Below are positions 4,938 through 23,406 of a stretch of 64,000 nucleotides of DNA, in pieces. Source of the DNA: a virus. The stretch spans positions 32,001 through 96,000 of IMG/VR virus record IMGVR_UViG_3300044797_000185. One strand, given 5' to 3'. The notes beneath the pieces are model-generated. The model did not search any database. It was not told the origin of the DNA and saw nothing but the letters and a program-made list of their open reading frames with translations. Both the position numbers and the translations under genes were made by a program. Within the stretch, counting starts at the first letter, position 1; each line of letters starts with the position of its first letter.

Positions 4938-7436
4938 ATGCCTTCAATTAATAATCAGCCAGTTCTTCCAGGCGTATTTTCCCAGGTCCAACAGCAATTG
5001 CTTCCTTCTGTAACAGGTGGAATCAGAGTTGCTGCTTATATTGGAACTGGTCGTTTGACCAATTTAGTTGTTGGTGAAGCAGTCATTCGTGGTTCAGGAA
5101 ATCTTGATGCTCTCTTGCATCCAGCAGTTGCTCTTGATGGGACTTCAATTTCTGATGCCAACTTTGCAACTTATGAATTAGGTGTTGATTATTCTCTTAG
5201 TGGACCTTTTATTATTACTTCTGTTACTGATGGAACTCATTTGGTTGTTTCTTCAACAACAGGTATGTCTTCTGGAAATACAATTACGCAAGGAACTGCT
5301 TCTACAGATATCGTAACAGTTACTGATGGAACTCATTTGGTTGTTTCTTCAACAACAGGATTTGTTGCAGGTACTGCTTTAAATACTTCTATCGATGGAA
5401 TTAATTGGCTTACTGGTGCTATTTCCTTAACAGGAACAGCAAGTGATCCTTATGCAGGTCTTAGTGGAAAAACTTTCCAACTTTCAGTTGCAGGTGGACC
5501 AATTCAAACAGTTACTTTTTCAACAGAAACATCTGCTGATCAAGTTGTTGCTACTTTGAATGGTGCATTAACTGGGGCTGTCGCTTCTACTCCAGAAGTT
5601 CCAGTGCCAACTCTTGGTTCAGCATCTACTTATGCTGTTATCGCAAGTTCTACTATTACAAATACTGGTTCTACCACTCTCACAGGAAATGTTGCACTTA
5701 GTCCAGCAGGTTCTATCACAGGTTCCCCAACAGTTGTTGGAACAACTCATAATGGTGATGGTACAGCTGCGACAGCTTTAGCTGATGCTAACACAGCTTA
5801 TACTGCTTTTGCAGCTCTTCCAGGTGCAACTGATTTATCAGGAATGGTATTAGGAACAGGTGGAACAGTACCTACTCTTACTCCAGGCGTTTATAAATTT
5901 ACTTCTTCAGCACAGCTTACTGGTGCTTTAACACTCGATGCTGCTGGCAATCCAAATGCACAGTGGGTTTTCCAGATTGGTTCTACATTAACAACAGCAT
6001 CTGCTTCTTCAGTATTGTTAATTAATGGAGCTTCCGCTGGTAACATCTATTGGCAAGTTGGTAGCTCCGCTACCCTTGGAACAACAACAGCATTTAAAGG
6101 AACTATCATTGCTCAAGCAAGTGTAACAGATACTACAGGCGCAACAGTTCAGGGTCGCTTATTTGCCCTTACTGGAGCAGTAACATTAGACACAAATACA
6201 GTAACAGTTGTTCCAGGAACAACCCCAGGCGGTTCTTCAGTTACAATTACAACAACTGCTACATCTAATTCTTCTCTTACAATTGAAAATGGAACAGCAA
6301 ATAGTATTCTTGGTTTTACTGCTGGTTCATTAGTTTCTACTCCTTCTCGTCCAGTACTTGGCGTTACTTATTATGTCAATTATGAGTGGGCAAAGGCATT
6401 AAATGATGGACAGAGTAGCTTTCAACCTCAGTTTTTCTTCTTGCAGAATTTTAGTACAATTACAAATGCAATGGGAACTGTTGGTGGTGGCGATTCACAA
6501 ACTGCTAATATGTCAGGCGCATGGACTCTTCCAATTGCAGCACAACTCGCACAACAGAATGGTGCAAGCATTGTTTGTTTAATGCAGATGAATCCAGCAG
6601 ATGGCTCTAATGCATCGCAGGTTCGCGCAGCATTACAAAAGCTTTTCATTCCAAATATCAACATCGTTGTTTCACTCGATGCTGCTGATAATGCAATGCT
6701 AATTCCAGACATCACAAATCACGTTGAAACTGCTTCTAGCACGATTAACCGATTAGAGAGAACAGCATTCATTGGATTCTCCGCTCTTTCAAATCCTAGC
6801 GATGCAACAATGCTTGGATATGCAACCGCTGCTTCCAGTAATCGTGTAGTTGTAGTTAACCAGACCAATACAACATACACAATGTTTATTGGAACTAACC
6901 AAACAGCTTCTACGGTTGATGGAACAATGGCCGCAGCAGCACTTGCTGCCATTCGAACAGATCCCGCATTTGACGTTGCACAGCCATTAACACGCGAAGT
7001 ATTATCAGGTATTGCTACAACAAATACATTGGCACAATCTGAAAAAACAATCTTTGTTAATAATGGTGTATTAGTTATTGATAATGTATCTGGTTCACCA
7101 AAGGTATTGTTTGGAACTACAACAGAATTTGACACAATTCTTAACCAATTGTATCAAGTCACTGAAATTACAGATTATGTAGCACAAACATTGCGTGGAT
7201 TGCTCGATCCAATTTTCATTGGACAGAAATTGCTTACAAATACTCCTTCACAGGTTGAAACAGTTTCAGGTGCAATTCTTACAACGATTGAAGCTTCAAA
7301 CATCATTGAGTCATTTACACAGCCTTCCGCAACAGTAAATCCTCAACAGCCAACTCAGATTTTGCTTCAGGTAGGCATACAACCCGTCTTAGAACTGGAT
7401 ACCATCCTAATCACATTGGGATTGAACTTAGTATAA
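4938..7436 (+). CDS. Contractile tail sheath protein with inserted DUF3494-like domain
   Basis: N-terminal LPGVFSQV motif, sheath-like C-terminus (IQPVLELDTILITL), followed by tube gene; SD aaggag. DUF3494-like insert at about 5610-6207. Confidence 0.88.
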   Translation: MPSINNQPVLPGVFSQVQQQLLPSVTGGIRVAAYIGTGRLTNLVVGEAVIRGSGNLDALLHPAVALDGTSISDANFATYELGVDYSLSGPFIITSVTDGTHLVVSSTTGMSSGNTITQGTASTDIVTVTDGTHLVVSSTTGFVAGTALNTSIDGINWLTGAISLTGTASDPYAGLSGKTFQLSVAGGPIQTVTFSTETSADQVVATLNGALTGAVASTPEVPVPTLGSASTYAVIASSTITNTGSTTLTGNVALSPAGSITGSPTVVGTTHNGDGTAATALADANTAYTAFAALPGATDLSGMVLGTGGTVPTLTPGVYKFTSSAQLTGALTLDAAGNPNAQWVFQIGSTLTTASASSVLLINGASAGNIYWQVGSSATLGTTTAFKGTIIAQASVTDTTGATVQGRLFALTGAVTLDTNTVTVVPGTTPGGSSVTITTTATSNSSLTIENGTANSILGFTAGSLVSTPSRPVLGVTYYVNYEWAKALNDGQSSFQPQFFFLQNFSTITNAMGTVGGGDSQTANMSGAWTLPIAAQLAQQNGASIVCLMQMNPADGSNASQVRAALQKLFIPNINIVVSLDAADNAMLIPDITNHVETASSTINRLERTAFIGFSALSNPSDATMLGYATAASSNRVVVVNQTNTTYTMFIGTNQTASTVDGTMAAAALAAIRTDPAFDVAQPLTREVLSGIATTNTLAQSEKTIFVNNGVLVIDNVSGSPKVLFGTTTEFDTILNQLYQVTEITDYVAQTLRGLLDPIFIGQKLLTNTPSQVETVSGAILTTIEASNIIESFTQPSATVNPQQPTQILLQVGIQPVLELDTILITLGLNLV
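5610..6207 (+). other. DUF3494 (IBP-like) ice-binding-like domain, copy 1 (in sheath)
   Basis: LGSASTYAVIASSTITNTG..TLTGNVALSP..GVYKFTSSAQLTGALTLDAAGNPNAQWVFQIGSTLTTAS..IYWQVGSSATLGT..FKGTIIA..GRLFALTGAVTLDTN. Confidence 0.9.
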
Positions 7437-7486
7437 AATAGAAAAGAAAAAATTTAAAAAAAGATATTTCGTAAAGGAGAATCACG

Positions 7487-8017
7487 ATGGCCGAATTAGG
7501 GAATACGATTGCTCGACTTAGTACTAGCGTTTCACTTTTTGTACTTCCAAAAACTTTGGATGCTACCACATTAAATAACCCAGCAGCTCTTTTAGCTCTT
7601 GCACAACAGAGCACAAAGATTGGTGCTGTACAATCCTTTACCCAAACTCAAAGACGAAATACAGATTTTCGATTTGAATTGGATTCTGATTCTCAGGGAA
7701 AGCCAGTTGAAAGACTTCCTCGCACAGTTGATGAGTATTCTATTCGTGCTCAGCGCGTAATGCTTTACATTTCTGATGCTTTAGAAATCCTTGGTATTAG
7801 CGGTGATGATATTGTTAATAACAATGCCCCAATTGGTATTCTTAAGCAAGAAATTGCTCCAGCAGGTTCAGGCGTTCCTACAAAGAGCACAATCTTTACA
7901 GGAGTTTGGATTCACTCAGTTGGTGCAACGTATAATATTTCTGGTGGCGATTTGCGCGTAATGGAAGATGTCGATTTTGGTTATACAGGATCTACAGTAA
8001 TTGGTGAACCAGCCTAA
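7487..8017 (+). CDS. Tail tube protein
   Basis: 176 aa directly after sheath; IGAVQSFTQTQRR and MEDVDFGY patterns resemble myovirus tubes; SD aaggag. Confidence 0.75.
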   Translation: MAELGNTIARLSTSVSLFVLPKTLDATTLNNPAALLALAQQSTKIGAVQSFTQTQRRNTDFRFELDSDSQGKPVERLPRTVDEYSIRAQRVMLYISDALEILGISGDDIVNNNAPIGILKQEIAPAGSGVPTKSTIFTGVWIHSVGATYNISGGDLRVMEDVDFGYTGSTVIGEPA

Positions 8018-8047
8018 CTTAGTTGATTTCTAGCTTCAAAATAGTAC

Positions 8048-8076
8048 TTGACAAAGTTCCCTTTATATGTTATACT
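8048..8076 (+). promoter_or_regulatory. Sigma70-type promoter
   Basis: TTGACA-17 nt-TATACT. Confidence 0.85.
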
Positions 8077-8107
8077 TAAGTAGAGACAAATAAGGGAGGT
8101 AACAAAT

Positions 8108-8356
8108 ATGTTACATTTATTTTGGGGCACATACTTAGTTTTGGGATTTGTGTTTCTCTTGCTTGTTAAGACTTTTGTAGATATTGTAAGATACATTTCC
8201 AATCCTCATAAAGTAGATGGAAAGTTTGTGAATGATTTATTTGTTGGACTTGGCACAGTTACTGTCATTGGCTTAGGTGCCTATTCTATTAATAAGTTAA
8301 ATCAAGTTCAAAATGAGCTTAGAGATTTAAAAGAACAGATTAAGTATCAAAGATAA
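8108..8356 (+). CDS. Small two-TM membrane protein (moron-like insertion in tail operon)
   Basis: Two hydrophobic segments plus a coiled-coil tail; own promoter and SD gggagg. Confidence 0.7.
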   Translation: MLHLFWGTYLVLGFVFLLLVKTFVDIVRYISNPHKVDGKFVNDLFVGLGTVTVIGLGAYSINKLNQVQNELRDLKEQIKYQR

Positions 8357-8373
8357 GTAAAAGGAGCAGTACA

Positions 8374-8715
8374 ATGGATTTGAAAAGCATTAAAAGCTTA
8401 GGAAGAGTTGAAAAGAAATTTGAATTGCTTAAGGGTTACACATTAACTCTCCATACACTTTCTTCTTCTGAAATGCAGGATTGTATTTCGGAGATTCCAA
8501 ATGGTCTTTCAGATGCCCATTGGCTTTCTGCTATGAATTTGGCATTATTATCTTACAGTACTTCTCATATTAATGATGAAGTTATTACATTAGAACAAGC
8601 TAAAGAATTTTATAAGAATCTTCAGATCACGTTACTTAATGATGCTGCTTTGTTTCTTGGAACGCTTAAAACAGAACAAGATGCAGTGTTAGAAGAACTC
8701 AAAAAAAAAGTTTAA
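8374..8715 (+). CDS. Tail assembly chaperone (G-like)
   Basis: Between tube and tape measure; ends in a nine-A run (8701-8709) just before the stop. Confidence 0.75.
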   Translation: MDLKSIKSLGRVEKKFELLKGYTLTLHTLSSSEMQDCISEIPNGLSDAHWLSAMNLALLSYSTSHINDEVITLEQAKEFYKNLQITLLNDAALFLGTLKTEQDAVLEELKKKV

Positions 8716-9083
8716 CAACCTCCCCTGACTCCCTCCCATTCAGACACCTCTGGATTGTAAGTCGTGCCCTCAATGTTTCCCCTTTTTCTGATACCATTAG
8801 AAATCTTTCTGAACCTGAAATCCTCTGGACTCTTCAAAATTATTATGCTGATCAAAATGAGGATATGGATAAATATAAACTATTACTCCGATTTATTAAT
8901 CCAGATGGCGCAAAAAAACTCTTTGATGAAAATAGATCTGAGATGACAGTAAGTACTGAAGATTTTATGCTTGAACAGATGTCAAAAGATCTTAAAGGTA
9001 AGTATACACCTGAAGAATTGGCTGAGATTATGGAAGATCCCGCCCATTTTGCAAACCTTGATAGAATAGAAAAGGCTGATTAA
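8374..9083 (+). CDS. Tail assembly chaperone frameshift product (GT-like) via -1 ribosomal frameshift
   Basis: A_AAA_AAA slippery site. The -1 frame is open from 8700 (SLTTSPDSLPFRHLWIVSRALNV...) and joins the 8865..9083 ORF. Confidence 0.75.
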
Positions 9084-9085
9084 CA

Positions 9086-9994
9086 ATGAAACAGCGATTA
9101 AATTTAGAAGGGCAAAAATTTGGATTGTGGTTTGTAGTTAAGTATTTCCATCAGGATAAATGGAGAACTGCTTTATGGGAATGTCTATGTGATTGTGGCA
9201 GTATAAGATTTCTTAAAACAGATACTTTGATAAAAGGTAAGTCTTCTTCATGTGGGTGTTTCCGAAGTAAACGAATGGCACACCAAAATAAGAAACTTTT
9301 TACAACACATGGATTTTCTTCTAGAAATAATAAAATATCCCGTAAATTTTACAGAGCATGGCAAGGAATGCTAGATAGATGTTTAAATAAAAATGGTGAA
9401 TTTTATTATAGATATGGAGGTCGTGGCATTAAGGTTTGTGATGAATGGTTAACATTTGAAGGTTTTAAAGAAGATATGTATGAATCATATTTAAAACATG
9501 GTAAAGATTTTGGTTTTGGAAGAAGTACAACCTTAGATCGTATCGAAGTAAATGGTAATTATTGTAGAGAAAATTGTAGATGGCTTACACAGGCAGAACA
9601 AATGCTTAATACTTCTGTTACAGCCAATGTTAAAGATCATGTTTCCTTTATAAAATTTAGACTTTCTTTAGAACGATTTATTCTCTATATTTTATTTGAA
9701 AATAGAGATTTTTTTAAAGCAACAATTAAAAAATGTGTTGATCTTACAGGATGTACTCCAATTGAACTTAAAGAGTATATTGCTTCTCAATTTAAAGATG
9801 GTATGACTTGGGATAATCATGGTCTTTATTCAAAACAATATCCAAAAGTATGGAATATTGATCATATTATACCTGTAAAAGATTTTGATCTTTCCTTAGA
9901 ATTAGAGCGTAAACTTTGTTTTAACTATAAAAATTTACGACCTTTATGGGGTAAAGATAACAATGTTAAAAGATGCCACACATCAAAAGTTTAA
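9086..9994 (+). CDS. HNH homing endonuclease with two HNH-type domains
   Basis: WECLCDCG..SCGC, YGGRGIKVCDEW..TLDRIEVNGNYCRENCRW, then MTWDNHG..IDHIIP..NYKNLRPLW..N. Confidence 0.85.
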   Translation: MKQRLNLEGQKFGLWFVVKYFHQDKWRTALWECLCDCGSIRFLKTDTLIKGKSSSCGCFRSKRMAHQNKKLFTTHGFSSRNNKISRKFYRAWQGMLDRCLNKNGEFYYRYGGRGIKVCDEWLTFEGFKEDMYESYLKHGKDFGFGRSTTLDRIEVNGNYCRENCRWLTQAEQMLNTSVTANVKDHVSFIKFRLSLERFILYILFENRDFFKATIKKCVDLTGCTPIELKEYIASQFKDGMTWDNHGLYSKQYPKVWNIDHIIPVKDFDLSLELERKLCFNYKNLRPLWGKDNNVKRCHTSKV

Positions 9995-9996
9995 AA

Positions 9997-10158
9997 ATGA
10001 ATCAAATTCCTTGTAAGAATTGCTATAAAAATATTGAAGAGCATTCGCAAGGTCTTAATTGTCTATTAAAATATGAATATGGTTGGGCATTGAAAGGCAC
10101 ACCATATGAACCATTTTCAAATCTCGATTATTTAGAATTTAAATATTTAAACAAGTAG
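9997..10158 (+). CDS. Cys/His miniprotein, NLxYLE family
   Basis: MNQIPCKNC...H...SNLDYLEFKYLNK. Confidence 0.6.
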   Translation: MNQIPCKNCYKNIEEHSQGLNCLLKYEYGWALKGTPYEPFSNLDYLEFKYLNK

Positions 10159-10196
10159 TTCCAACCTAAGTAGTAAATTCCAAGAGGTAAATTCCA

Positions 10197-11954
10197 TTGG
10201 CAGATCTATTAGGCCCTTCTGGGCAACCATTGCAACCTAATCCATTTCAAACAGGACAATCTTCTCTTCCTTTAAATACAACCCAGGCTCAAAGAGCTAT
10301 GGCTGACTTACAGAAGAGTATGGATGGTCTTCTTGGATCATTTAAGACTAATTGGGATAAGGCTACTCAGGAACGTCTTCATGCAGAAGAAACGTTTTTT
10401 CGTTCCGTTGATAAACTTTCTAAATCCAATCACGCTAACCTATTGCGTCAAAAAGATGAATATATATCCAAAATTAAACAAGAAGCAAGTGCCCAATTAG
10501 ATGCCTATCAAAAAGAAGTATCTGAAGGTAAAAGATCTGCTGAAGAATTAGCTTCATTTCGAACAGCTAAAGCGGTTGAAGTAAATAAAAAAGTTGTTGA
10601 AGCTGAACGAGATGTTAATAGAAAGCGTACTGAGGAACTTAAAAAAAGTGGTTTTCTATCCCAGTCAGGACAATTTTTAGGTCAAGTTGGTGGTCATATT
10701 GGTGGTGTATCTGGAGCTGCCATTTCTGGTGTTGGAAGTGCTCTTGGACTTCTAGCCAATCCTGCTTTTGATGTAGCTGCCATCATAGGTTTAGCTGTAG
10801 CAGCAGCTTTTAAAATAGGTGAGCAAGAGGCCCAAAAGGTACGAATAGGGGCTTCCTTGGCTTCTGGAGGCTTTGGAATAGGGGCTGGAGGAAGAGCAGC
10901 TGCTGGAATAGAGGGTGGAGGGTTATTCGGTCCCCTTTTTGGTAGTGCTTTAAGTGCCAAAGATCAAGAACGTCTTGTTGGAACAATGGCAACTTCTCCT
11001 CAATTATTGCAGGGGGCTACTTCCTCAAATAAAGATTTTTTGGATACTATGGGATTATTCGCTAATGTAATGCCAGATTCCACCGAAATTATAAAAGAAA
11101 TGGTTCGAGAGTCTAATTCCTTGGGCATGTCTTTTAAACAAATGCAACAGACTTTTACGAGTGTTCGTGTAAATCAGCATACACTTAATAGTAGCTTTTC
11201 AGACACTATAAATACACAGCTTGCTATGCAGAAATCATTACGTAATCTTACTAATGATACAGGTGTAGCAGCAAGTCTTATTAATAATCTTGGAACCTAT
11301 TTTGATAAGATTAAAGCTAATCCTGAAGAACGTCAAAGAATGGCTTCTGGTTTTGCCGCTGGCATTGCTAATCTTTCTCTTTCTCAAATCGTTGGTATGG
11401 CTGGATTTATTGGAGGCGGTAAACTTCCAACTCATGATCAATTGTTTGGAGGATCTAATCCTTTAGTTGGTGCAGGAACTCCTGCTTTGTTAGGTAATTT
11501 TCTATCTAAAGTAGGAGCACAGGCTGGCCCAAGAGGAACTATACAATCTGATTTAGTTGCAGATCAGTTAAGACAACAATTCTTACAAGGATCTCGTCTA
11601 CAAGATGTAGGAAGTTTCTTTCAAGCAGTAGATGCATTAAAAGCAGGTAAGATTACCTCTGCACAATTTGGTAAAAAGTTTGAAACTTTGGAAAAGAATA
11701 CCCCTCAAGGACTTATGGCTGAGGGTATTCAAAAACTTGGAGCTGTTTTAGGACCAGAAGGGCAATTTGAAAAATTTCTAAGTGCCTTTTTTACTAAGAT
11801 GATTGAAGACTTGGAAATTATTGCAGGTAAAAGAGATGGTCCTGGGGTTAGCAGAGTTAAGCATATTGTTTCTGAAGTAACAGGGGCTCATTCTAAGAAA
11901 GATTTAGCTAAAAAAATTATAGGAACTACGTTACATATCGCTTCAAATGTATAA
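10197..11954 (+). CDS. Tape measure protein (putative)
   Basis: TTG start with SD gaggt; long helical Ala/Gly/Gln-rich protein with hydrophobic G/A-rich segment; position after chaperone and before baseplate. Confidence 0.75.
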   Translation: MADLLGPSGQPLQPNPFQTGQSSLPLNTTQAQRAMADLQKSMDGLLGSFKTNWDKATQERLHAEETFFRSVDKLSKSNHANLLRQKDEYISKIKQEASAQLDAYQKEVSEGKRSAEELASFRTAKAVEVNKKVVEAERDVNRKRTEELKKSGFLSQSGQFLGQVGGHIGGVSGAAISGVGSALGLLANPAFDVAAIIGLAVAAAFKIGEQEAQKVRIGASLASGGFGIGAGGRAAAGIEGGGLFGPLFGSALSAKDQERLVGTMATSPQLLQGATSSNKDFLDTMGLFANVMPDSTEIIKEMVRESNSLGMSFKQMQQTFTSVRVNQHTLNSSFSDTINTQLAMQKSLRNLTNDTGVAASLINNLGTYFDKIKANPEERQRMASGFAAGIANLSLSQIVGMAGFIGGGKLPTHDQLFGGSNPLVGAGTPALLGNFLSKVGAQAGPRGTIQSDLVADQLRQQFLQGSRLQDVGSFFQAVDALKAGKITSAQFGKKFETLEKNTPQGLMAEGIQKLGAVLGPEGQFEKFLSAFFTKMIEDLEIIAGKRDGPGVSRVKHIVSEVTGAHSKKDLAKKIIGTTLHIASNV

Positions 11955-11970
11955 TAAAAGGTAAAAATAA

Positions 11971-12468
11971 ATGGCAACAATTTATCCATTACAGCTTAAT
12001 GGTCTTAATTTCTTCGTAAATCCTCGCAATATGAAGATTTCAAAATCAGTAGCATTTTCTCCTCTACCTACGCAGAGCGGAGTACAATATCAAGTTTGGT
12101 ACAACGCTCCCGAAATGCTTTCTATTAGTGGAGCTTCTGCTGGTCAAACTGCTTACCAAGAACTTCTTTTCTTAAAACAGAATTTTGAAAAGAATGATAA
12201 GCTTAGTACTCTTTTTTATAAGACTCAGCTTTATCAAGGTTTTATAACGTTGCTAGATGTTGAGGCTTCCACAAGCCATTTAAATGAATTTACCTATCAA
12301 TTAAATTTTCAATTATTGACAGGTCAACAGTTTGCCATTGAAGATTTTTCGATTTCTACAACTAATAACGGATTAGTATTAGGAGCAATTGCTAATTTAC
12401 AAAAAGTTTTAAATATCCCACTTAATCAGGCAAACGCAAAGATTAACAGTCTTTTACAGAAATTTTAA
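11971..12468 (+). CDS. Putative tail tube initiator / baseplate-tube junction protein
   Basis: Follows tape measure; FFVNPRNMKISK pattern typical of such proteins. Confidence 0.55.
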   Translation: MATIYPLQLNGLNFFVNPRNMKISKSVAFSPLPTQSGVQYQVWYNAPEMLSISGASAGQTAYQELLFLKQNFEKNDKLSTLFYKTQLYQGFITLLDVEASTSHLNEFTYQLNFQLLTGQQFAIEDFSISTTNNGLVLGAIANLQKVLNIPLNQANAKINSLLQKF

Positions 12469-12662
12469 TGATTGGTTTTCCTTGTGATTGTGGACATATA
12501 AAAAAAGATCACGAAGCTTCTCTAATAGAACCTGAATATTGGCAATGGCCAAGAAAAAATCTTTGTGGGGAATGTAATTGTATTGGATATATAATTATGT
12601 CTAATTTAAAATATTTAGCGCAACGATACGAAGAGAGTATAAAAAATGGCAACTCCAGATAA
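12468..12662 (+). CDS. Cys/His miniprotein, NLxYLE family
   Basis: FPCDCGHIKKDH...CGECNC..Y..SNLKYLAQRYE; overlaps both neighbours. Confidence 0.65.
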   Translation: MIGFPCDCGHIKKDHEASLIEPEYWQWPRKNLCGECNCIGYIIMSNLKYLAQRYEESIKNGNSR

Positions 12663-14823: not shown

Positions 14824-14825
14824 TC

Positions 14826-15890: not shown

Positions 15891-15891
15891 C

Positions 15892-16362
15892 ATGGCTTCT
15901 TTATCTCAATGTGTAATTACATTCATTAAAAATATACTTTGTGCTAATCCTATCCTTAAGAGTACATTTAAAACTTTTTTGAATAGCCAAATTTTATTAG
16001 CCCAAGAACAGATTTCGCTTATTTCGGCTCAAATTCTTAGACTTGATATTTTAAATTCTTTTGCTCAATTAGAAATTCAAACTCTTAAAACTGTACAGAA
16101 TCAAATACAAGCAGATCTTAATGTTGTATTCGGACCTATGAGTGGTTATGCATCCTGCCCTGAAATAGGTCAAATTCTTGCTCAGGCGCAGAGTGGGTCT
16201 ACTGCCAAAGCCCTCGCCGCCCTACAAAATTTGATATATACTTATAATCGCAGACAATACGTTGCTAATGCTCTTACTGCTGAGCAAAAACAGTTACAAA
16301 ATTATGTACAAACCGCGCAGAACATTTTGAATAACATCGATAATGTTTGTGCAAACTCTTAA
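15892..16362 (+). CDS. Hypothetical helical protein in baseplate cluster
   Basis: ORF with tight spacing to neighbours; no recognised motif. Confidence 0.55.
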   Translation: MASLSQCVITFIKNILCANPILKSTFKTFLNSQILLAQEQISLISAQILRLDILNSFAQLEIQTLKTVQNQIQADLNVVFGPMSGYASCPEIGQILAQAQSGSTAKALAALQNLIYTYNRRQYVANALTAEQKQLQNYVQTAQNILNNIDNVCANS

Positions 16363-16373
16363 GGAGAATTACT

Positions 16374-16850
16374 TTGTCCGATCTACAGTTGGCCGTAAAA
16401 AATCAACCTGGAGTAGTACAATATCCTCCACAACAAGGCAACCCCAATTTCTATTTCGGAGAACAGACAAATGATCTTCAGATAGGTAGCAATAATGATT
16501 TTACTTTGGTGATGGGTCTTACTGAAACGATTCAAGACGTACAAAAGATTCTTCTCACAGAACAAGGTGCAAATACTAGCTTTCCTTTGTATGGTACAAC
16601 TCTTCAAAATTTAATTGGTAACAAGATGAATTTAAATACTATAAGTGGATCAGTTCAAGATCAGATCACAACTGCTTTACAAATTTTATTTTTACTTACG
16701 CAAAATAGATCAAATCCAGCAGAAGTTGTACAAACATTGTATTCATTAAGCACGACTATTCAGGGTGAAACAAATATCTCTTCCCTTCTTACCGTAATTG
16801 CTGCATCAGGACAGGAAATTACGACAGGTGTGAACATAGGTAGTATTTAA
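16374..16850 (+). CDS. Baseplate wedge protein, gp25/gpW-like
   Basis: TTG start after SD aggag (track extends to 16347); QDVQKILLTEQG..FPLYGTTL motif; precedes baseplate J. Confidence 0.75.
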   Translation: MSDLQLAVKNQPGVVQYPPQQGNPNFYFGEQTNDLQIGSNNDFTLVMGLTETIQDVQKILLTEQGANTSFPLYGTTLQNLIGNKMNLNTISGSVQDQITTALQILFLLTQNRSNPAEVVQTLYSLSTTIQGETNISSLLTVIAASGQEITTGVNIGSI

Positions 16851-16861
16851 AGGATTAAATT

Positions 16862-18730
16862 ATGGCCCTTCCCAATTTTTCACAAATTGTTTCTAGCATG
16901 ATAGCCTTTTTACAAGGTTCTAGACCTGACATAGCAACTCAAGTCGGGAGTGTCACCAATGATGTAGTTATATCTACGGTTGCCAACCAATTGTCGGCTG
17001 AGGATGGAACTGATCCAAGTGTATACTCTTCAATTCAGTATACTCAAAATCTTCAAGCTTTCGTAGAGAATGCAGCAACAATTCTTCCCGCAGATTTAGA
17101 TGCTATTGGTAATAATTATGGAATGGTTCGAAATCCAGGCACACAATCTGTTGGAACTATAACCTTTCGTATTCGTAATTATACAACCACAAGTCCAATT
17201 GTCATAGTTCCTTCTGGAACAGTTGTTTCTACGTTAGCTACTACTCAATCTCCTGCAATTGCATTTGCAACAACTGCAACAGTTACTTTCTCTCCTTCTC
17301 TTGCTCCAAGTTACTTTAATCCCGTAACTGGTTTTTATGAGCAATCTACTACAATTGTTTGTCAGACTATAGGAGCTATTGGTAATGTTGGTGCACAAAC
17401 GATTACCTCACTTGTGTCTTCAGTTTCTGGCATTGATGCTGTAACTAATAATACGGCTGCTACTGGTGGTACAGATATTGAAAGCAATACGGCTTTTGCT
17501 GACCGCATCCAGATTAAACTTGAAGGAAATAACGTGGGCACTCCCAATGGAATCATTAGTCTTATGGAGACTAATCCAAACGTTATTCAAGCACTTATTG
17601 TTGGACCAAATGATCCTAATCCTCCAGCCCGAAATCAATATGGTGGAAGCGTTAATGTTTATATTAGAGGACAAATTCCCGTAACGGTATTAAATGAATC
17701 CTTTACTTATTCTACAACAGGAAGTCAACAATATATTTTGTTGAATCAACCAGCCCTATCAGTTGGTTCTGTGACAGGCATTGTCGATGGCAGTCCTTAT
17801 ACCTTCGTTCCTGGTGTTGATTATAATTTTATAGAAAATCCAAATAGTTTATATGCAGGAAGTATTAACGCTGGTAGCTATATTAATTTTAATGTTCTAA
17901 CATTTTTTAATATTGTAGTAGTTGGTCTTCCTTTTACAGTTACCACTGTTACTGATGCAATTCACCTAGTAGTTAATAGTACAGCTGGTATGACAGCAGG
18001 TGATACAATCGTACAGGGAGTAAATACAACCACAATTGCAGTTGGTGGTGTGGTAGATGCTACACATTTGACAGTAGGTTCTACAACGGGTTGGCTTGGT
18101 AGTGGAACTCCAGCCGCTGATACATCAGTACCACAACTAACAGTAAATACAACAAGTGGTATGAATCCTGGGGATACAATCGTACAAGGATCTTTCTCTA
18201 CTACAGTTACTACTGTTACTGATTCTACACATTTAGTTGTTGGTAGTATATCTGGATTAGGGACTGGGAGTGCTCAATTTTCAGGATTTAGACCAGATAA
18301 TAATACAGTTGTTTCTATCAATTATACGTATGATAGTCTGATTGCCACACTTCAAGCTCTTTTGGATAATAATTCTAATCATATTGTTGGTTCCGATATT
18401 TTGGTATTTGAGGCAATTGAAGCTTTTATTAATGTAACGATGGGTCTTTTGATAGTACCAGGATATGTTCCCGCTACAGTTGTTGCAAATGTGCAAACTG
18501 CCTTGACAGATTATATAAATGCCCTTGGCCTTGGGGCTGTCGTTGTTTTGAGTGAACTAGTTGCTATTGCCCAAGATGTACCTGGAGTATCAGAAGTTGA
18601 TCTCAGCAGTCTCATTCTTCAATCAGTAGAAAATGGTATTACCACAACAATTCCACCTGGGCAACAAATTTCTGTCGGTAATGAAGCGTATACTGTAACA
18701 AATACCTTAAATATTTCAGTAGAAGCGTAA
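16862..18730 (+). CDS. Baseplate J-like protein with inserted beta modules
   Basis: LDAIGNNYGMVR, GAIGNVGAQTIT, GGTDIESNTAFADRI, GTPNGI, INALGLG..LSEL motifs; DxxHLxV repeats at about 17930-18275. Confidence 0.88.
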   Translation: MALPNFSQIVSSMIAFLQGSRPDIATQVGSVTNDVVISTVANQLSAEDGTDPSVYSSIQYTQNLQAFVENAATILPADLDAIGNNYGMVRNPGTQSVGTITFRIRNYTTTSPIVIVPSGTVVSTLATTQSPAIAFATTATVTFSPSLAPSYFNPVTGFYEQSTTIVCQTIGAIGNVGAQTITSLVSSVSGIDAVTNNTAATGGTDIESNTAFADRIQIKLEGNNVGTPNGIISLMETNPNVIQALIVGPNDPNPPARNQYGGSVNVYIRGQIPVTVLNESFTYSTTGSQQYILLNQPALSVGSVTGIVDGSPYTFVPGVDYNFIENPNSLYAGSINAGSYINFNVLTFFNIVVVGLPFTVTTVTDAIHLVVNSTAGMTAGDTIVQGVNTTTIAVGGVVDATHLTVGSTTGWLGSGTPAADTSVPQLTVNTTSGMNPGDTIVQGSFSTTVTTVTDSTHLVVGSISGLGTGSAQFSGFRPDNNTVVSINYTYDSLIATLQALLDNNSNHIVGSDILVFEAIEAFINVTMGLLIVPGYVPATVVANVQTALTDYINALGLGAVVVLSELVAIAQDVPGVSEVDLSSLILQSVENGITTTIPPGQQISVGNEAYTVTNTLNISVEA

Positions 18731-18742
18731 GAGGATAAAAAT

Positions 18743-21193
18743 ATGCCAATTAATTATACGTTGAAAGTAAATGAAAGAGCAATACCTCAAGCAATAACTA
18801 ATGAAGCACATACAGTTGGAATTGTAGGTGTCTTCACAGTCGCTTCAGGAGAAATTCGCTTAATTGAGGTTCCTCAAGGGCCAGCTCCAGCTGTAACCAT
18901 AACTGGTTCTGGTGGCCCCTATAATGAAATTACAAGCGGGTCCCCTACTGGGGGTCAATTTTTAGTTAATTATTCTACAGGAGTTGTTACTTTTTCTACA
19001 GCTCAAAATGGGAATAGCGTTTTAGCTTCTTATACGGGACTTGGTTCTGAAATTGCAGCAGAAGATATCAATGAGCTTGAAATACCTGTTGGAATTGCCT
19101 TAAATGCTGATGGTTCTCTATCTGCTGGCATTGTTACAACCTCTAGTATTTCTAATTCAGCCGTTATTTCTCTAACAAATCTACAAACTTTAAATCCTTC
19201 CATTGTCCCCGTAACTAATGGTTCTGGTGTATTAACATCTTCTTCTACTACAGCAACGGAACTTGGTTATGTCCATGGTGTAACTTCTAATATTCAAACA
19301 CAGATTAATGCTCTTTCTTCGGGTACGGTATCTTCAATAACAGGAACAGCTAATGAAGTTATTGCTTCTTCCTCTACAGGAGCCATTACTCTTTCTCTAC
19401 CTCAACCTATAGCTACTACTTCTTCTCCAACATTTGCTTCACTCACACTCACTTCTCCTCTTACAGTAGCTAATGGTGGTACAGGAGATGCAACATTAAC
19501 AGCATACTCAGTACTTACTGGTGGTACTACTTCTACAGGAGCAGTTCAATCAGTATCAGGTGTAGGAACTACAGGACAAGTATTAACGAGTAATGGAGCA
19601 AGTACACTTCCTACATGGCAGACCCCTTCTGCTACAGGCATTACTGCTTTAACAGGCGATGTAGTTACTAATCCCGCTACTTTACTTGGCTCAGCTGGTT
19701 CTTTTGCAGTTCTAGGAGACACAGCAGTTACAAATACAGGAAGCACTGTTCTTACTGGTGATTTAGGTATCTATCCAGGAACATCTATTACAGGATTCCC
19801 TCCAGGAACATTTACAGGCACAGAACATATTGCTGATGCTACAGCAGCACAAGCACATACTGATGCTACTTCAGCCGCTACAACATTAAAAGCAATGGGA
19901 CCTGGAACAAACATTAGTTCTACAGATCTCAATGGTTTTACGGCTGTTCCAGGTGTTTATTCAGCAACAGCAGCAGGTACATGGACAGCAACAGGTAATT
20001 TAACCTTAAATGGTGCAGGAACTTATGTATTTTTGTTTGGAACTTCTCTTACTATAGGTTCAAACTGTAATGTAGTTTTAACTGGTGGAGCTACAGCTAA
20101 TAACGTTTACTTCGTAACTGGTACATTCTTTACTTTCGGAGCTAATGATACTATTAATGGTAATATCTTAGCTGGAACATCCATCACCTTTGCAGCTTCT
20201 AGCGTACTTAATGGTTGTGCTCTTATTTATGGTCCCTCTGGGACAACCGTAACATTCCCAAGTGCAGGAACAGTAACAGCTTCTGGTGGTACTAGTGGAA
20301 CAGCAGTTACTACTGTAGAAAGTGTTGGTGGATCTTCAGCAGCTAATATTCATAGTGCAGAACTTCTTGCTAATGCTGCTACATCTTTAGATACCCCATC
20401 AACTATAGTAAAACGTGATGCAAGTGGTAATTTTGCAGCTGGAACGATTACTCTTGACGATCAGGGAGCAATTGTATTTGAAGATTTGGCAGGTACAGCA
20501 TCCGTTACTTTAGAGGCTCCTACTACTGTTACAACAAGTTACACTTTAAATTTACCAATAGCACAAGGAAGTAGTGGTCAAACATTGAGTAATGATGGTA
20601 CTGGAATTTTAAGTTGGGTTACACCTGCTGGTGCAACGTATACAGCTGGAACGGGTATTACTTTAACAGGATCTTCTTTTTCACTTACGGCTCCAGTTAC
20701 TATTGCTTTAGGTGGAACAAATAGTACAACAGCTTTAACAAATAATAAAGTAATGATTTCAAGTTCTGGAGCTATTATAGAATCTGGAACTACTACAACT
20801 GAATTAGGTTTCGTCGATGCCACTAGCTCTATTCAGACACAATTAAACAGTAAACAATCAGCTACTTTGGCAGATGCAAATATTTGGGTTGGTAACGGCT
20901 TTAATACAGCAACAGCAGTTTCCTTAAGTGGGGATGCTACTTTGTCGGACACAGGAGTATTAACTCTTTCCACTGTAAATTCTAATGTTGGTTCTTTCAC
21001 TAATGCTAATATTACTGTAAATGCTAAAGGATTAATTACTGCTGCTTCTGATGGAAGTGCTAGTAGTACAGCAACATCATTTCAGATTTTAGCTAGTGAC
21101 CCAGGAAGTCCTACTACTGCTGAAGTTTGGTTTAACTCAACTGATTTTCAATTTAAGGGATATAACGGCACATCAACAGTAATTCTTGGTTAA
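18743..21193 (+). CDS. Tail fibre-like protein with DUF3494-like domain
   Basis: Shares fibre modules with the 3..2075 protein; DUF3494-like insert at about 19682-20260. Confidence 0.78.
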   Translation: MPINYTLKVNERAIPQAITNEAHTVGIVGVFTVASGEIRLIEVPQGPAPAVTITGSGGPYNEITSGSPTGGQFLVNYSTGVVTFSTAQNGNSVLASYTGLGSEIAAEDINELEIPVGIALNADGSLSAGIVTTSSISNSAVISLTNLQTLNPSIVPVTNGSGVLTSSSTTATELGYVHGVTSNIQTQINALSSGTVSSITGTANEVIASSSTGAITLSLPQPIATTSSPTFASLTLTSPLTVANGGTGDATLTAYSVLTGGTTSTGAVQSVSGVGTTGQVLTSNGASTLPTWQTPSATGITALTGDVVTNPATLLGSAGSFAVLGDTAVTNTGSTVLTGDLGIYPGTSITGFPPGTFTGTEHIADATAAQAHTDATSAATTLKAMGPGTNISSTDLNGFTAVPGVYSATAAGTWTATGNLTLNGAGTYVFLFGTSLTIGSNCNVVLTGGATANNVYFVTGTFFTFGANDTINGNILAGTSITFAASSVLNGCALIYGPSGTTVTFPSAGTVTASGGTSGTAVTTVESVGGSSAANIHSAELLANAATSLDTPSTIVKRDASGNFAAGTITLDDQGAIVFEDLAGTASVTLEAPTTVTTSYTLNLPIAQGSSGQTLSNDGTGILSWVTPAGATYTAGTGITLTGSSFSLTAPVTIALGGTNSTTALTNNKVMISSSGAIIESGTTTTELGFVDATSSIQTQLNSKQSATLADANIWVGNGFNTATAVSLSGDATLSDTGVLTLSTVNSNVGSFTNANITVNAKGLITAASDGSASSTATSFQILASDPGSPTTAEVWFNSTDFQFKGYNGTSTVILG
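19682..20260 (+). other. DUF3494 (IBP-like) domain, copy 2 (in fibre; most diverged)
   Basis: LLGSAGSFAVLGDTAVTNTGSTVLTGDLGIYPGTSITGFPPG..PGVY..LTLNGAGTYVF..ATANNVYF..INGNILAGTSIT. Confidence 0.85.
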
Positions 21194-21207
21194 AAAGGTA
21201 AATAATA

Positions 21208-23406
21208 ATGGCATTCTACGGATCTGGGATTTTTTATGGTTCTGGAAGTTTTTACATTGGGGCAACCACATCTGCTGCCCAGGGTATTCCTGTTGATCTT
21301 AGATTTTATAGAACAAGTCAGGATGGTATTTATGTTTTTTGGTGGGGGTTTGATCCTGCATTCATTAATCCCGCATTAGCGACAGCAGGTTTTGACTTAG
21401 AACTTGATACAGTTCCAACATTTAATTCCCCAAATTTAGTTGAATTTACACAAGTCACTGCCATCACGTTTCAAAATGGTAATGTTAGAAAAGGATTTGC
21501 TGTTCCCGTAGCAGCCCGTATTAATGCAACAGTACAGACTTGGTATGCCAGAGTAAGAACGCATACTCCCTCATTTATATCTGATTGGTCTGCAACATTG
21601 ACTTGGACTATACCAATGTCTGTTCAGCAATCTACAGCTGAAGCTTTAATGGAATCTTTACCTGATTATCATGTGTATGGTAAGGGGGATCTATTAAAAC
21701 CCGTATCTCAACGTAATTCTAATTTATGGGTTGTAGAAAATATGTATGGTAATCAATTTGATCAAGTATATTATACAAATTTTCTTACGCAAACTGATAA
21801 CTATGTAGATTTATGTGTAGATGAAAATTTATATGAAAATTTTGGTGTTCAGTTTAATTTTCCTAAACCAAATAGTATGCAGTACGTAGATTATCGGTGG
21901 ATTTTGATGAATTTGTATCTAGCTTCTTTAGTAGGCAGTACAAATGAAGCTATCATACTAACAGTTCAATCTTTTACGGGTGTTCCTCCTGCAATTACAA
22001 ATATTCGTGATATCAATAACTTTATTTTAACCACAACTCAAGATGCTCCTATTACACAAGTTCTTAATACGGCCACTATCGTATCTGTTATAGACGGTAC
22101 ACATTTATTAGTCAACAGCACAGTAGGATGGGTTTCTGGGGTTGCTTCAGATACAACAGCTTCTATTCCTTTTACAGTAGTCGAAGTAGAGGATGGTGTT
22201 CACCTAGTAGTTAATAGTACAGCTGGTATGACCGCAGGTGATACAATCGTTGAATCTGTTTTTTATACTTCTTCTCCATTCATTGATTCCACCCTAGTTG
22301 TTCAAGATGTTACTCCTAGTTCCCCTGTTTCTCCTCTTTTGACAGCTTCTACCTATGCTGTTTTGGGTGCTTCCACTGTTACAAATACTGGTAATAGTGT
22401 CCTTACGGGAAATTTAGGACTTTATCCAGGTACATCTGTCACTGGTTTTCCTCCTGGTACATTCACTGGTACAGAGAACATAAATAACGCAGCAGCCCAT
22501 ACCGCTCAAAATGATGCTATAGCAGCTTACACTACGTTTGCATCTATGGGAGGCGCAACTGTTCTAACTGGAGATTTGGGAGGAAAAACTCTTCTACCTG
22601 GACTTTATAAATATAGTAGTTCAGCAGGACTTACAGGAACTCTTACTTTAGATGCCGCTGGTAATGCTGGAGCTAAATGGATTTTTCAAATTGGTAGCAC
22701 ACTTACTACAGCTAGTAGTTCATCAATTGTTGTTATTAATGGTGGAAGTGCTGGTAACGTTTATTGGCAAGTTGGTAGCTCCGCTACCCTTGGAACAACA
22801 ACAGCATTTAAAGGAACTATCATTGCTCAAGCAAGTATTACGGCTACAACAAGTGCAGTTATTAATGGTGGACTTATTGCCCTTACTGGAGCAGTAACAT
22901 TAGACACAAATACAGTAACAGTTGTTCCTGGAACATCTTCATCAGGTCTTATAGTTCCTCCTAGTGCTTATGTGACAGATGGAGCATTGGGATATTGGAC
23001 TATGAGAGTTCCTACTACAGATACTTTACAAGCTACCTTTGATACAGGTAGTCCAATTAAAGTATTTGATGCTTTGCAGGGGGCTACAGTGTTATCTGGA
23101 CTTGTAACTTTTACTAATGGAAATAGTGTTATTTCTGGCTCAGGAACATTATTTTTATCTCAACTTTCTATTGGGCAAGAAGTTACAGATCCAAATGGAA
23201 TTTATCTAGGGACAATAGCCCAAATAACTGATAATACACATGCTACGTTGTTAGAGCCATGGCCAGGTCCTACCGAGGTCGTTACAGCTTACAGATTACT
23301 TTATACTGATACACAACTTCCCGTTCCTGTTCTATGGGATATACATACATTAGCTTTTGGAGTATTGATTACAATTTTTAATCCAGGAAACTTCCCACTT
23401 TTTTAA
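21208..23406 (+). CDS. Baseplate wedge / gpI-like protein with DUF3494-like domain
   Basis: LYENFGVQFNF..YRWILMNLYLASLVGSTNEAIILTVQSFTG resembles gpI-like wedge proteins; DUF3494-like insert at about 22336-22920. Confidence 0.65.
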   Translation: MAFYGSGIFYGSGSFYIGATTSAAQGIPVDLRFYRTSQDGIYVFWWGFDPAFINPALATAGFDLELDTVPTFNSPNLVEFTQVTAITFQNGNVRKGFAVPVAARINATVQTWYARVRTHTPSFISDWSATLTWTIPMSVQQSTAEALMESLPDYHVYGKGDLLKPVSQRNSNLWVVENMYGNQFDQVYYTNFLTQTDNYVDLCVDENLYENFGVQFNFPKPNSMQYVDYRWILMNLYLASLVGSTNEAIILTVQSFTGVPPAITNIRDINNFILTTTQDAPITQVLNTATIVSVIDGTHLLVNSTVGWVSGVASDTTASIPFTVVEVEDGVHLVVNSTAGMTAGDTIVESVFYTSSPFIDSTLVVQDVTPSSPVSPLLTASTYAVLGASTVTNTGNSVLTGNLGLYPGTSVTGFPPGTFTGTENINNAAAHTAQNDAIAAYTTFASMGGATVLTGDLGGKTLLPGLYKYSSSAGLTGTLTLDAAGNAGAKWIFQIGSTLTTASSSSIVVINGGSAGNVYWQVGSSATLGTTTAFKGTIIAQASITATTSAVINGGLIALTGAVTLDTNTVTVVPGTSSSGLIVPPSAYVTDGALGYWTMRVPTTDTLQATFDTGSPIKVFDALQGATVLSGLVTFTNGNSVISGSGTLFLSQLSIGQEVTDPNGIYLGTIAQITDNTHATLLEPWPGPTEVVTAYRLLYTDTQLPVPVLWDIHTLAFGVLITIFNPGNFPLF
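22336..22920 (+). other. DUF3494 (IBP-like) domain, copy 3 (in baseplate wedge)
   Basis: TASTYAVLGASTVTNTG..GNLGLYPGTSVTGFPPG..DLGGKTLLPGLYKYSSSAGLTGTLTLDAAGN..WIFQIGSTLTTAS..VYWQVGSSATLGT. Confidence 0.9.

Follow-up and report, generated by a model that had tools for sequence, protein, structure and literature searches.

The stretch of DNA analysed here (the window; 64,000 nucleotides of IMG/VR record IMGVR_UViG_3300044797_000185) is the tail module of an uncultured myovirus with a genome of about 190 kb, and three of the proteins it encodes, of 832, 816 and 732 residues, each contain a DUF3494 domain (Table 1). In a Pfam hmmscan, PF11999 (Ice_binding) aligned to residues 234-423 of the 832-aa protein (191.1 bits; nucleotides ~5637-6206), residues 323-494 of the 816-aa protein (119.8 bits) and residues 385-571 of the 732-aa protein (192.8 bits). 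With E-values between 2e-34 and 7e-57, a chance match is excluded, and the DUF3494 identity of the domains is confirmed. A sequence-only reading of the same DNA had pointed to three inserts with DUF3494 motifs, at 5610-6207, 19682-20260 and 22336-22920, and had suggested HMMER as a check; both the positions and the quoted motifs proved right against PF11999 and against the envelopes of our own HMM, which set the domain limits in Table 1, and all three proteins score far above the gathering cut-off of 28.7 bits.

Table 1. Features of the tail module, with positions in the window, strand and supporting evidence (aa, residues; G006, a 151-kb relative of the phage).
Feature	Position	Strand	Evidence
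456-aa tail-module protein with C-terminal He_PIG Ig-like domain, without DUF3494	3424..4794	+	PF05345 E 8e-08; phrog_8763 tail protein
832-aa contractile tail sheath; its outer part bears two accessory insertions	4938..7436	+	tblastn, distant homologues, AF2, VIA-align
Two DGTHLVV mini-repeats, a separate accessory module (sheath residues ~89-150)	5202..5387	+	motif scan, DNA repeats
DUF3494 type A in sheath (residues 225-432)	5610..6233	+	PF11999 E 2.4e-56; 7BWY Z 34.8
Conserved sheath core (residues 436-832)	6243..7433	+	84% identical to 565-aa sheath of G006
Probable tail tube, 176 aa	7487..8017	+	size and location immediately downstream of the sheath; G006 orthologue 87% identical
gp25-like baseplate wedge subunit	16347..16850	+	phrog_975, phrog_120, phrog_43
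Baseplate J-like wedge protein, 622 aa	16862..18730	+	PF04865 E 7e-22; phrog_6 E 4e-33
816-aa Ser/Thr/Gly-rich fibre-like protein	18743..21193	+	composition, position; phrog_11315 over residues 32-101
DUF3494 type B in 816-aa protein (residues 314-512)	19682..20278	+	PF11999 E 1.7e-34; 6EIO E 2e-28
732-aa baseplate-region protein	21208..23406	+	AF2, fold searches, phrog_9922
DGTHLVV repeat pair forming a small EF-Tu-domain-2-like beta-barrel	22057..22302	+	VIA-align Z 8-9, 64 aa, rmsd 1.6 Å
DUF3494 type A in 732-aa protein (residues 376-580)	22333..22947	+	PF11999 E 7.4e-57; 7BWX
Tail fibre with phage tail collar domain, without DUF3494	24779..26641	+	PF07484 E 1e-14; several tail-fibre PHROGs

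A fourth copy of the domain lies outside the window (G000:C1:15788-16717), in a 309-aa protein encoded by a separate small gene within the head gene cluster; it matches PF11999 at 138.7 bits and carries a He_PIG Ig-like domain at its end. The four copies sort into two types. Those of the sheath and the 732-aa protein are of type A and share 67% identity; those of the 816-aa and 309-aa proteins, of type B, share 75%; identity between types is 41-46%. Recent duplication within the genome was rejected as their origin: besides the 67% protein identity, the sheath and 732-aa copies have 74% of their DNA in common over 300 nt, and in a phylogenetic tree each copy groups with copies of other phages.

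The largest carrier is confirmed as a true contractile sheath. By tblastn it matches the proteins annotated as sheath in Tunturi_5 and Bacillus phage G, and distant homologues linked to it by sequence (P0070, P0072 and P0073) bear the sheath families PF04984 or PF17482; the protein itself matched no sheath family at E ≤ 0.01 in Pfam or PHROGs. Its AF2 model (pLDDT 84.5) superimposes in VIA-align on the sheaths of phage 812 (Z 26.5, rmsd 2.3 Å) and R2 pyocin (Z 22.6), the phage 812 match spanning model residues 28-745 yet aligning only 237 residues, as fits a sheath core assembled from N- and C-terminal segments. The gene context agrees, with a tube-sized gene next and the gp25-like and Baseplate_J genes downstream, all on the same strand. 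Together these results bear out the label of sheath that had been given from sequence only. The 176-aa product that follows is probably the tail tube, to judge from its position and size; it matched no HMM.

The other two carriers lie next to the baseplate genes. In the 816-aa protein the first 147 residues are conserved with the orthologue in G006 and the remainder is variable. Its earlier description as a fibre is plausible by composition and position, and the evidence for it consists of these two features. Its type B domain lacks the last coil of the solenoid and has a phenylalanine in one row of the B-face (the putative ice-binding face discussed below), and its nearest relatives in the tree are copies that other phages carry in their sheaths and in proteins of the 732-aa family. 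The AF2 model of the 732-aa protein (pLDDT 85.6) consists of an FN3-like domain, a helical domain, a beta-barrel, DUF3494 and a C-terminal beta part. It had been called a wedge protein, a label that the HMM and fold searches do not support: no wedge HMM matched it, the sole match outside DUF3494 in Pfam and PHROGs is phrog_9922 (minor tail protein; residues 631-699), and the folds recovered with the whole model were limited to FN3, the EF-Tu-domain-2-like barrel and DUF3494, with nothing wedge-like. The true Baseplate_J wedge gene is the one at 16862-18730; the 732-aa gene is the second downstream of it, an arrangement kept in G006. A phmmer search of the PDB with the parts of the 816-aa and 732-aa proteins outside DUF3494 gave no match. 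Further downstream, the collar-domain fibre is likely the receptor-binding fibre.

Two assayed proteins that share the Pfam family and fold of the phage domains are AnpIBP of the fungus Antarctomyces psychrotrophicus (7BWX/7BWY) and EfcIBP of a Euplotes focardii consortium bacterium (6EIO), to which structural similarity was high (Z 34-35, rmsd 0.9-1.5 Å). In VIA-align the type A models aligned to AnpIBP over about 200 residues with Z 34-35 and rmsd 0.9-1.2 Å, the sheath domain to 7BWY (rmsd 0.9 Å over 200 residues) and that of the 732-aa protein to 7BWX (Z 34.1, rmsd 1.2 Å over 201 residues). In the AlphaFold models, a check that the sequence-only reading had proposed, the inserts of the sheath and the 732-aa protein take the form of DUF3494 solenoids. 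Both models contain the long bracing helix (residues 275-292 in the sheath, 428-446 in the 732-aa protein) with short strands on either side, so that the type A copies are predicted to have the discontinuous triangular beta-solenoid and single long alpha-helix that define DUF3494, or IBP-1, proteins. At the sequence level the phage domains are 44-50% identical to AnpIBP and EfcIBP (47-50% to EfcIBP, and 49-50% between the sheath domain and 6EIO), and ice activity has been measured for both of these proteins (PMC7277481; PMC10992025).

In AnpIBP, substitutions in the B-face row S153-S-A-T-L-G158 (S153Y and T156Y) reduce activity to 17% (PMC7277481). This SSATLG row is identical in the sheath and 732-aa copies, where S153 and T156 align with S376 and T379 of the sheath, and a second row, SAVTLD in AnpIBP, reads GAVTLD here. 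When aligned to the AnpIBP rows of PMC7277481, 79% of the outward B-face positions are alanine, glycine, serine or threonine. The sheath domain has a threonine ladder (T332/T352/T379/T397/T416), of which type B retains four of the five threonines. Across 87 viral copies the exposed B-face is the least variable class of surface position (1.08 bits, compared with 1.56 bits on the C-face and 1.55 bits elsewhere; Mann-Whitney p 0.002). The share of the same four residues on this face is 78% in those viral copies and 74% in 83 cellular copies, and viral and cellular faces agree in their consensus rows, with a threonine column that hardly varies. A face that is conserved and the same as in cellular homologues favours one shared, invariant ligand over a host receptor, and the sequence comparison argues for such a ligand. 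Part of this conservation could, however, come from the stability of the solenoid instead of ligand binding, and the phenylalanine and missing last coil of type B copies speak against ice.

Comparison with related phages indicates that the domain behaves as an optional cassette. In most close relatives the sheath has 565 residues and the orthologue of the 732-aa protein 466, with clean gaps at the cassette sites; in sheaths without the domain a short segment stands at its site, and orthologues of the 732-aa protein with 457-560 residues are without the insert. Overall the cassette is missing from about 55 of 71 sheaths and 74 of 86 proteins of the 732-aa family among close relatives, and G006 has no DUF3494 copy at all. 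Phages with the cassette come from metagenomes 3300028563, 3300028666, 3300037184, 3300028800, 3300044797, 3300050138, 3300028653, 3300028654, 3300014838, 3300037563, 3300029986, 3300030004, 3300029908, 3300005542 and 3300027842, and relatives lacking it from 3300020123 (151 kb, no copy), 3300006028, 3300035696, 3300022222, 3300015360 and 3300050821. Being absent from most close relatives, it is non-essential. The insertion hot spots are, in other relatives, empty or filled by other small modules, and they also accommodate Ig-like, FN3-like and small beta-barrel modules here. In all 20 genomes compared, the sheath and the 732-aa family either both carried the cassette (6 genomes) or both lacked it (14), but in an independent-pairs test, with two concordant contrasts on well-supported branches and four on all branches, this co-occurrence did not reach significance.

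In the tree, the viral copies form a pool of their own, swapped among sheath, fibre and baseplate-region proteins, and in 39 other viral carriers the domain is embedded in proteins of 294-2495 residues, one of them a Baseplate_J protein. The nearest cellular copies, at 59% identity or less, come from metagenome-assembled genomes (MAGs) named for Stordalen palsa, bog and fen, Chersky, the SPRUCE peat site, Danish soils and northern lakes, as well as from a Cryobacterium isolate; many are held by temperate soil MAGs. Several of the IMG numbers concerned may be those of Stordalen Mire peat, which plays no part in the argument. Among 50,697 GenBank phage records, tblastn found no DUF3494 match with the sheath domain (E ≤ 1e-3) or with the two other whole carriers (E ≤ 0.01), and no PHROGs family covers the domain.

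In the explanation that we propose, four proteins of the virion or of virion modules each bear one complete DUF3494 beta-solenoid as an optional cassette, drawn from a phage-specific pool and placed in an insertion hot spot, with the B-face, predicted to be flat, unchanged. This face, rich in threonine, serine, alanine and glycine and bearing the threonine ladder, is the surface through which AnpIBP and other assayed relatives bind ice. One copy lies within the variable outer region of a true sheath, which makes multivalent display on the particle the natural interpretation, and we infer that on the order of a hundred copies would project outwards from the tail. Because the face that was kept is the ice-binding site of AnpIBP, we think of the particle as a multivalent binder of the ligand of the cellular proteins, most likely ice, a proposal to which we would give slightly less than an even chance. 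The sites named in the records of the nearest cellular copies, and the Cryobacterium isolate, also speak for ice. An affinity for ice would keep virions at the ice/water interfaces of frozen peat or soil, or else limit recrystallisation damage to the tail. More tentatively, we suggest that cassettes which head-module, sheath, fibre and baseplate-region proteins gain or lose together may constitute a switchable coat for frozen habitats, one that would bind ice through the threonine-ladder face, keep virions at the interface between ice and liquid film alongside hosts active below zero, and shield the contractile tail from recrystallising ice.

The main rival to ice binding keeps the same anatomy and changes the ligand: the domains would be general adhesins for extracellular polysaccharide, for humic or mineral surfaces or for a common cell-surface polymer, and the particle would be more likely to stay in the matrix of its host, comparable to what Ig-like decoration domains may do. 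DUF3494 has been reported as a substrate-binding or adhesive domain in many settings without ice, including temperate algae and epiphytic bacteria (PMC12337378). Phage structural proteins often gain binding modules, which also occupy the very hot spots seen here; moreover, the cassette is optional and swapped between proteins, and the abundance of temperate soil MAGs among the nearest cellular copies fits as well. Against this, a B-face consensus that is identical in phage copies and in cellular copies of many phyla points to an invariant ligand more than to a polymer specific to one lineage, the assayed proteins nearest in sequence (44-50% identity) all bind ice, and no carbohydrate-binding signature came to light. 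We regard a ligand other than ice as somewhat less probable than ice itself.

It is quite unlikely that the domains are inert decoration, in which a rigid, bulky solenoid would stabilise the sheath and fibres or shield them from proteases, shear or premature contraction with no ligand at all. While beta-solenoids are very stable (the midpoint temperature cited for EfcIBP is 66.4 °C; PMC10992025) and the hot spots do take unrelated small modules, such a role leaves unexplained both the higher conservation of one solvent-exposed face and the joint presence of the domain in three or four different proteins. Least probable by far, and rejected for this phage, is an auxiliary metabolic gene whose soluble ice-binding product would protect the host cell during infection, which is the published reading of PF11999 in Arctic viral contigs (PMC11515562) and might suit the 309-aa protein as a separate small gene, but three of the four copies lie inside structural proteins (one a verified sheath) with no signal peptide or reading frame of their own, the 309-aa gene lies among head genes and its product ends in an Ig-like domain, and the 39 other viral carriers likewise embed the domain in larger proteins.

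Several known systems resemble parts of the ice-binding particle that we favour. AnpIBP and EfcIBP are free, secreted single-domain proteins, whereas the phage domain is an internal cassette and a putative ice binder. Multi-domain layouts are seen in IBPv of Flavobacteriaceae 3519-10 (5UYT), with two tandem DUF3494 domains, and in SfIBP_1 of Shewanella frigidimarina (6BG8), a DUF3494 protein deposited as 'Ig domain protein, group 2'; the 309-aa phage protein, too, joins DUF3494 to an Ig-like domain. Both proteins are cellular, have no link to a virus particle and are 33-37% identical to the phage domains in structural alignments. Accessory domains inserted in the non-conserved outer part of contractile sheaths, such as those of T4 gp18, or added to the capsid as Ig-like decoration, such as T4 Hoc, are dispensable for assembly and vary between relatives; here a single fold recurs in several distinct virion proteins of one phage. 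For the mechanism, a parallel is MpIBP of Marinomonas primoryensis, whose ice-binding domain is not DUF3494 but folds differently, as a calcium-bound beta-solenoid. As described in PMC5550230 and PMC5014055, this 1.5-MDa ice adhesin positions its carrier on ice and does not serve as an antifreeze, much as proposed here; its carrier is a bacterial cell and ours a virion. The Arctic viral PF11999 genes of PMC11515562 belong to the same family and come from cold water, but were read as host-protecting auxiliary genes, whereas here the domain lies within structural proteins.

The sequence-only reading had remarked that DUF3494 seemed undescribed in phage tail structural proteins, and our literature search likewise found no report of it in virion proteins or as a sheath or decoration domain. 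Proteins that bind ice have been described in bacteria, archaea, fungi, algae and animals, and in the literature searched none is part of a virus particle. If ice is indeed bound, phages of frozen soils and peat would be physically adapted to it, with a bearing on their persistence and infection below zero and on carbon turnover in thawing permafrost, and the helical array on the sheath would offer a natural multivalent ice-binding scaffold and a route to freeze-tolerant phages. Should the particle prove to be ice-adhesive, it would provide the first known case of physical adaptation to ice in a virus particle, and many 'ice-binding auxiliary genes' of polar viromes would really be virion parts. 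If the ligand is something else, DUF3494 would be a general surface adhesin and thousands of 'ice-binding-like' annotations would need rereading. Given that the domain is found in structural proteins of this phage and its relatives, at least some viral PF11999 hits taken as auxiliary may be parts of virions, and either way the structural context should be checked before such hits are called host-protecting auxiliary genes.

The DGTHLVV mini-repeats are an accessory element separate from DUF3494. They are missing from the 565-aa sheaths, and the 622-aa Baseplate J protein, in which DUF3494 is absent, has two of them (at residues 365 and 454); a repeat of the 732-aa protein and one in the baseplate J gene share 93% of their DNA over 59 nt.

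The DUF3494 domains of this phage are a genuine feature and no artefact, and they belong to a family already known, here in a structural role that is new and apparently undescribed, with a putative function in ligand binding. A sequence-only reading had placed three such domains on tail proteins, and this was borne out at the same positions by Pfam matches to PF11999 (Ice_binding), with E-values of 2.4e-56 in the 832-aa, 1.7e-34 in the 816-aa and 7.4e-57 in the 732-aa protein. All three belong to a myovirus tail module in which every gene between window positions 141 and about 27,000 is on the + strand. A scan of the whole IMG/VR record (117,836 bases; completeness 61% by CheckV estimate; a complete relative with terminal repeats has 192,085 bases) showed that a fourth copy is encoded upstream of the window, in a 309-aa protein which ends in a He_PIG Ig-like domain and whose gene lies 2.7 kb downstream of that for the major head protein. 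The sheath and 732-aa copies (type A) are 67% identical and the 816-aa and 309-aa copies (type B) 75% identical, with 41-46% identity between types.

Features of the tail module and its surroundings (window positions, except where G000:C1, the record under study, is named)
Feature	Position	Strand	Remarks
1211-aa protein	G000:C1:7735-11370		upstream of window
900-aa Kelch-repeat protein	G000:C1:27764-30466 (L186, 9764-12466)		upstream of window
456-aa Ig-domain protein		+	tail module
GIY-YIG-type homing-endonuclease gene	2243-2839		phrog_314, E 2e-36
832-aa protein	4938-7436	+	tail module; PF11999 carrier
'DGTHLVV' repeats, sheath	5202-5387		paired
176-aa tube-sized gene		+	tail module
HNH-type homing-endonuclease gene	9086-9994		phrog_374, E 3e-55
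gp25-like gene	16347-16850	+
Baseplate_J	16862-18730	+
'DGTHLVV' repeats, baseplate J	17930-18255		paired
816-aa Ser/Thr/Gly-rich protein	18743-21193	+	PF11999 carrier
732-aa protein	21208-23406	+	PF11999 carrier
'DGTHLVV' repeats, 732-aa protein	22057-22302		paired
Collar-domain tail fibre	24779-26641	+

As had been proposed, the 832-aa protein is that of a contractile sheath: its C-terminal 360 residues match proteins annotated as sheaths in Tunturiibacter phage Tunturi_5 and in Bacillus phage G, the sheath families PF04984 or PF17482 occur in remote members of its homologue set, and its AlphaFold2 model (pLDDT 84.5) resembles the sheaths of phage 812 (Z 26.5, 237 residues, rmsd 2.3 A) and R2 pyocin (Z 22.6). 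Since the alignment draws only on the N-terminal strands and residues 440-745, residues from about 50 to 440 are extra. In solved sheaths the tube is lined by a conserved core and extra domains face outward; on this architecture, the insert would be displayed outward on the tail. The label of baseplate wedge, earlier given to the 732-aa protein, agrees with gene position, and HMM and fold searches found no wedge match, which leaves position as its sole ground. The AlphaFold2 model of this protein (pLDDT 85.6) comprises an FN3-like domain (residues 22-138), a helical domain (140-257), a small barrel resembling EF-Tu domain 2 and formed by a pair of 'DGTHLVV' repeats (285-349, Z 8-9), then the DUF3494 domain and a C-terminal beta part with a weak match to a 'minor tail protein' PHROG. 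The 816-aa protein has only its first 147 residues in common with its orthologue in G006 (IMGVR_UViG_3300020123_000589, a 151-kb relative), a pattern to be expected of an N-terminally anchored fibre.

Among relatives, the DUF3494 insert is an optional cassette. A sheath-core search returned 71 homologues; among the nearest (80-92% identical in the core), about 45 are of approximately 565 aa and lack PF11999, and about 16 are of 750-976 aa and carry it. Their alignment shows an insertion hot spot after sheath residue ~195, occupied in different phages by a short linker, by type A, by type B with extra repeats (homologue P0016) or by 'DGTHLVV' modules. PF11999 is likewise present in 12/86 homologues of the 732-aa protein, the remainder being 457-560 aa long. 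G006, collinear with the window in gene order and 87% identical in its tube, gave no PF11999 match: its 565-aa sheath aligns to residues 1-88 and 436-831 of our sheath, its 466-aa orthologue to residues 1-283 and 578-731 of the 732-aa protein, and it has no counterpart of the 309-aa gene. On the sheath-core tree, presence of the domain requires nine changes, at least three of them forced by well-supported branches, and the row closest to our sheath (homologue P0004, 91% identical) is without it. When sheath and 732-aa-family proteins were paired genome by genome, for all pairs but one through contigs of identical length, the domain occurred in both in 6 genomes, in neither in 14 and discordantly in none. 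This co-occurrence is suggestive but not significant, since no more than 2 to 4 of the contrasts are phylogenetically independent. IMG/VR classes G006 as a provirus; if this is true, the flanks of the original contig could show the host of the phage group.

A second module, the ~32-aa repeat 'DGTHLVV..ST.G', is found in pairs in three tail proteins (see table), and its position in the sheath varies among relatives. Over 59 nt, the repeat of the J gene and that of the 732-aa protein are 93% identical at the DNA level, which suggests a recent exchange.

Two short peptide patterns, searched in IMG/VR alone, identified 121 stretches of DUF3494 on viral contigs, in reading frames of 294-2542 aa. 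Among 39 viral carriers, other Pfam domains were limited to chitobiase-C and Fn3-associated in two and Baseplate_J in one. In a tree built from 87 viral and 83 cellular copies, only 7 changes in the viral/cellular label are required compared to 57 expected by chance, so the phages have a DUF3494 pool of their own. Within that pool the same domain type shifts between carrier proteins, and this phage's type B fibre copy is nearest (85%) to copies which other phages carry in 732-aa-family proteins (P0089) and in a sheath (P0016). A fresh duplicate pair among the copies in this genome is ruled out by their 74% DNA identity over 300 nt. Viral contigs L012 (IMGVR_UViG_3300028654_000024), L054, L065 and L075 have the domain within giant reading frames (2085-2730 aa), in some cases as 2-3 copies per protein. 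The fold may also be present on viruses well outside tailed phages, given that a 533-aa frame begins with a DUF3494 domain in L063 (IMGVR_UViG_GVMAG-S-1021933-23_000001; 402,530 bases), whose name marks a giant-virus MAG. Another viral copy (contig L059, 4001-4579; frame of ~1385 aa) has an in-frame stop within the domain, which may reflect a broken copy, an error in sequencing or recoding.

The solved structures nearest to the phage domains are EfcIBP (PDB 6EIO; 47-50% identity; Z 34.2 and rmsd 1.5 A for the sheath model), AnpIBP (7BWX/7BWY; 44-47%; Z 34-35, rmsd 0.9-1.2 A) and IBPv (5UYT; 33-36%; Z 32-33), and ice activity has been measured for the first two. The AnpIBP ice-binding site lies on B-face rows that have been listed, and S153Y and T156Y reduce thermal hysteresis to 17% (PMC7277481). 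Aligned to these, the sheath-copy rows read YAVIAS, GALTLD, STLTTA, SSATLG, ASVTDT and GAVTLD; SSATLG is identical to AnpIBP S153-G158, while GAVTLD differs from SAVTLD at one position. Outward B-face positions of the sheath copy are 79% Ala/Gly/Ser/Thr (n=24), the same kind of composition as the AnpIBP ice-binding surface (70%; PMC7277481). Type B retains 4/5 ladder threonines, but SSATLG is replaced by TFFTFG and the last coil is missing.

The 170 viral and cellular domains were aligned, and their positions were assigned to classes according to the AnpIBP rows and the strands of the predicted model. Over the 87 viral copies, mean column entropy was 1.08 bits on the exposed B-face, 1.56 on the C-face, 1.55 at other positions and 1.78 in the helix; B-face variability is below that of all positions outside the A- and B-faces (Mann-Whitney, p 0.002) and of the C-face (p 0.017). 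Entropies in the threonine column (T332, T352, T379, T397, T416) are 0.64, 1.05, 0.09, 0.32 and 0.16 bits. Ala/Gly/Ser/Thr make up 78% of the B-face in viral versus 74% in cellular copies, bulky or charged residues 5% versus 7%, and the consensus rows are the same. The peptide patterns used for collection sit on other faces and thus do not account for this conservation. We read this as one constraint that acts on this face in phage and cellular copies alike, which is consistent with one common invariant ligand and does not fit an arms race over a host receptor; part of the constraint could be structural.

Judging from these comparisons, ice is the candidate ligand that we tentatively put first, on the strength of the sequence identity to ice-binders with measured activity, of site conservation and of where the nearest cellular copies come from. 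Record titles of the top 80 name Stordalen palsa, bog and fen MAGs, Chersky, SPRUCE peat and Danish soil MAGs, as well as northern lakes, groundwater, and Cryobacterium and Arthrobacter isolates; no gut or hot-spring names were seen in these 80, a list biased by sampling. Counted against ice are the optional nature of the cassette and the fact that, in several settings without ice, DUF3494 has been described as binding substrates (PMC12337378), the latter also favouring a ligand other than ice, a credible possibility that we hold with greater doubt. Cassettes without any ligand are improbable: the B-face constraint does not fit an inert spacer. We give very little credence to an auxiliary gene, as in the nearest published statement, in which three PF11999 genes on Arctic viral contigs were linked to possible host cryoprotection (PMC11515562). 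Given its structural context in this phage, the domain suggests that PF11999 genes on viral contigs can be virion parts. No paper linking ice-binding with a tail sheath was found, nor anything relevant on DUF3494 and phage, nor, among the papers listed by a wider search on virions, tail fibres and baseplates, any mention of ice-binding or PF11999.

Further observations concern the surrounding structural genes. Both homing-endonuclease genes lie inside the structural module, the HNH-type one flanked by small genes downstream of the tube on one side and a possible tape-measure gene on the other. Residues ~80-260 of the 1211-aa protein match a head maturation protease PHROG (phrog_18299), and this protein is much bigger than usual prohead proteases. 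Finally, the 900-aa protein between head and tail genes has a Kelch-repeat beta-propeller (PF13964, E 4e-34; PF01344, E 6e-27), a domain unusual in a phage particle gene cluster.
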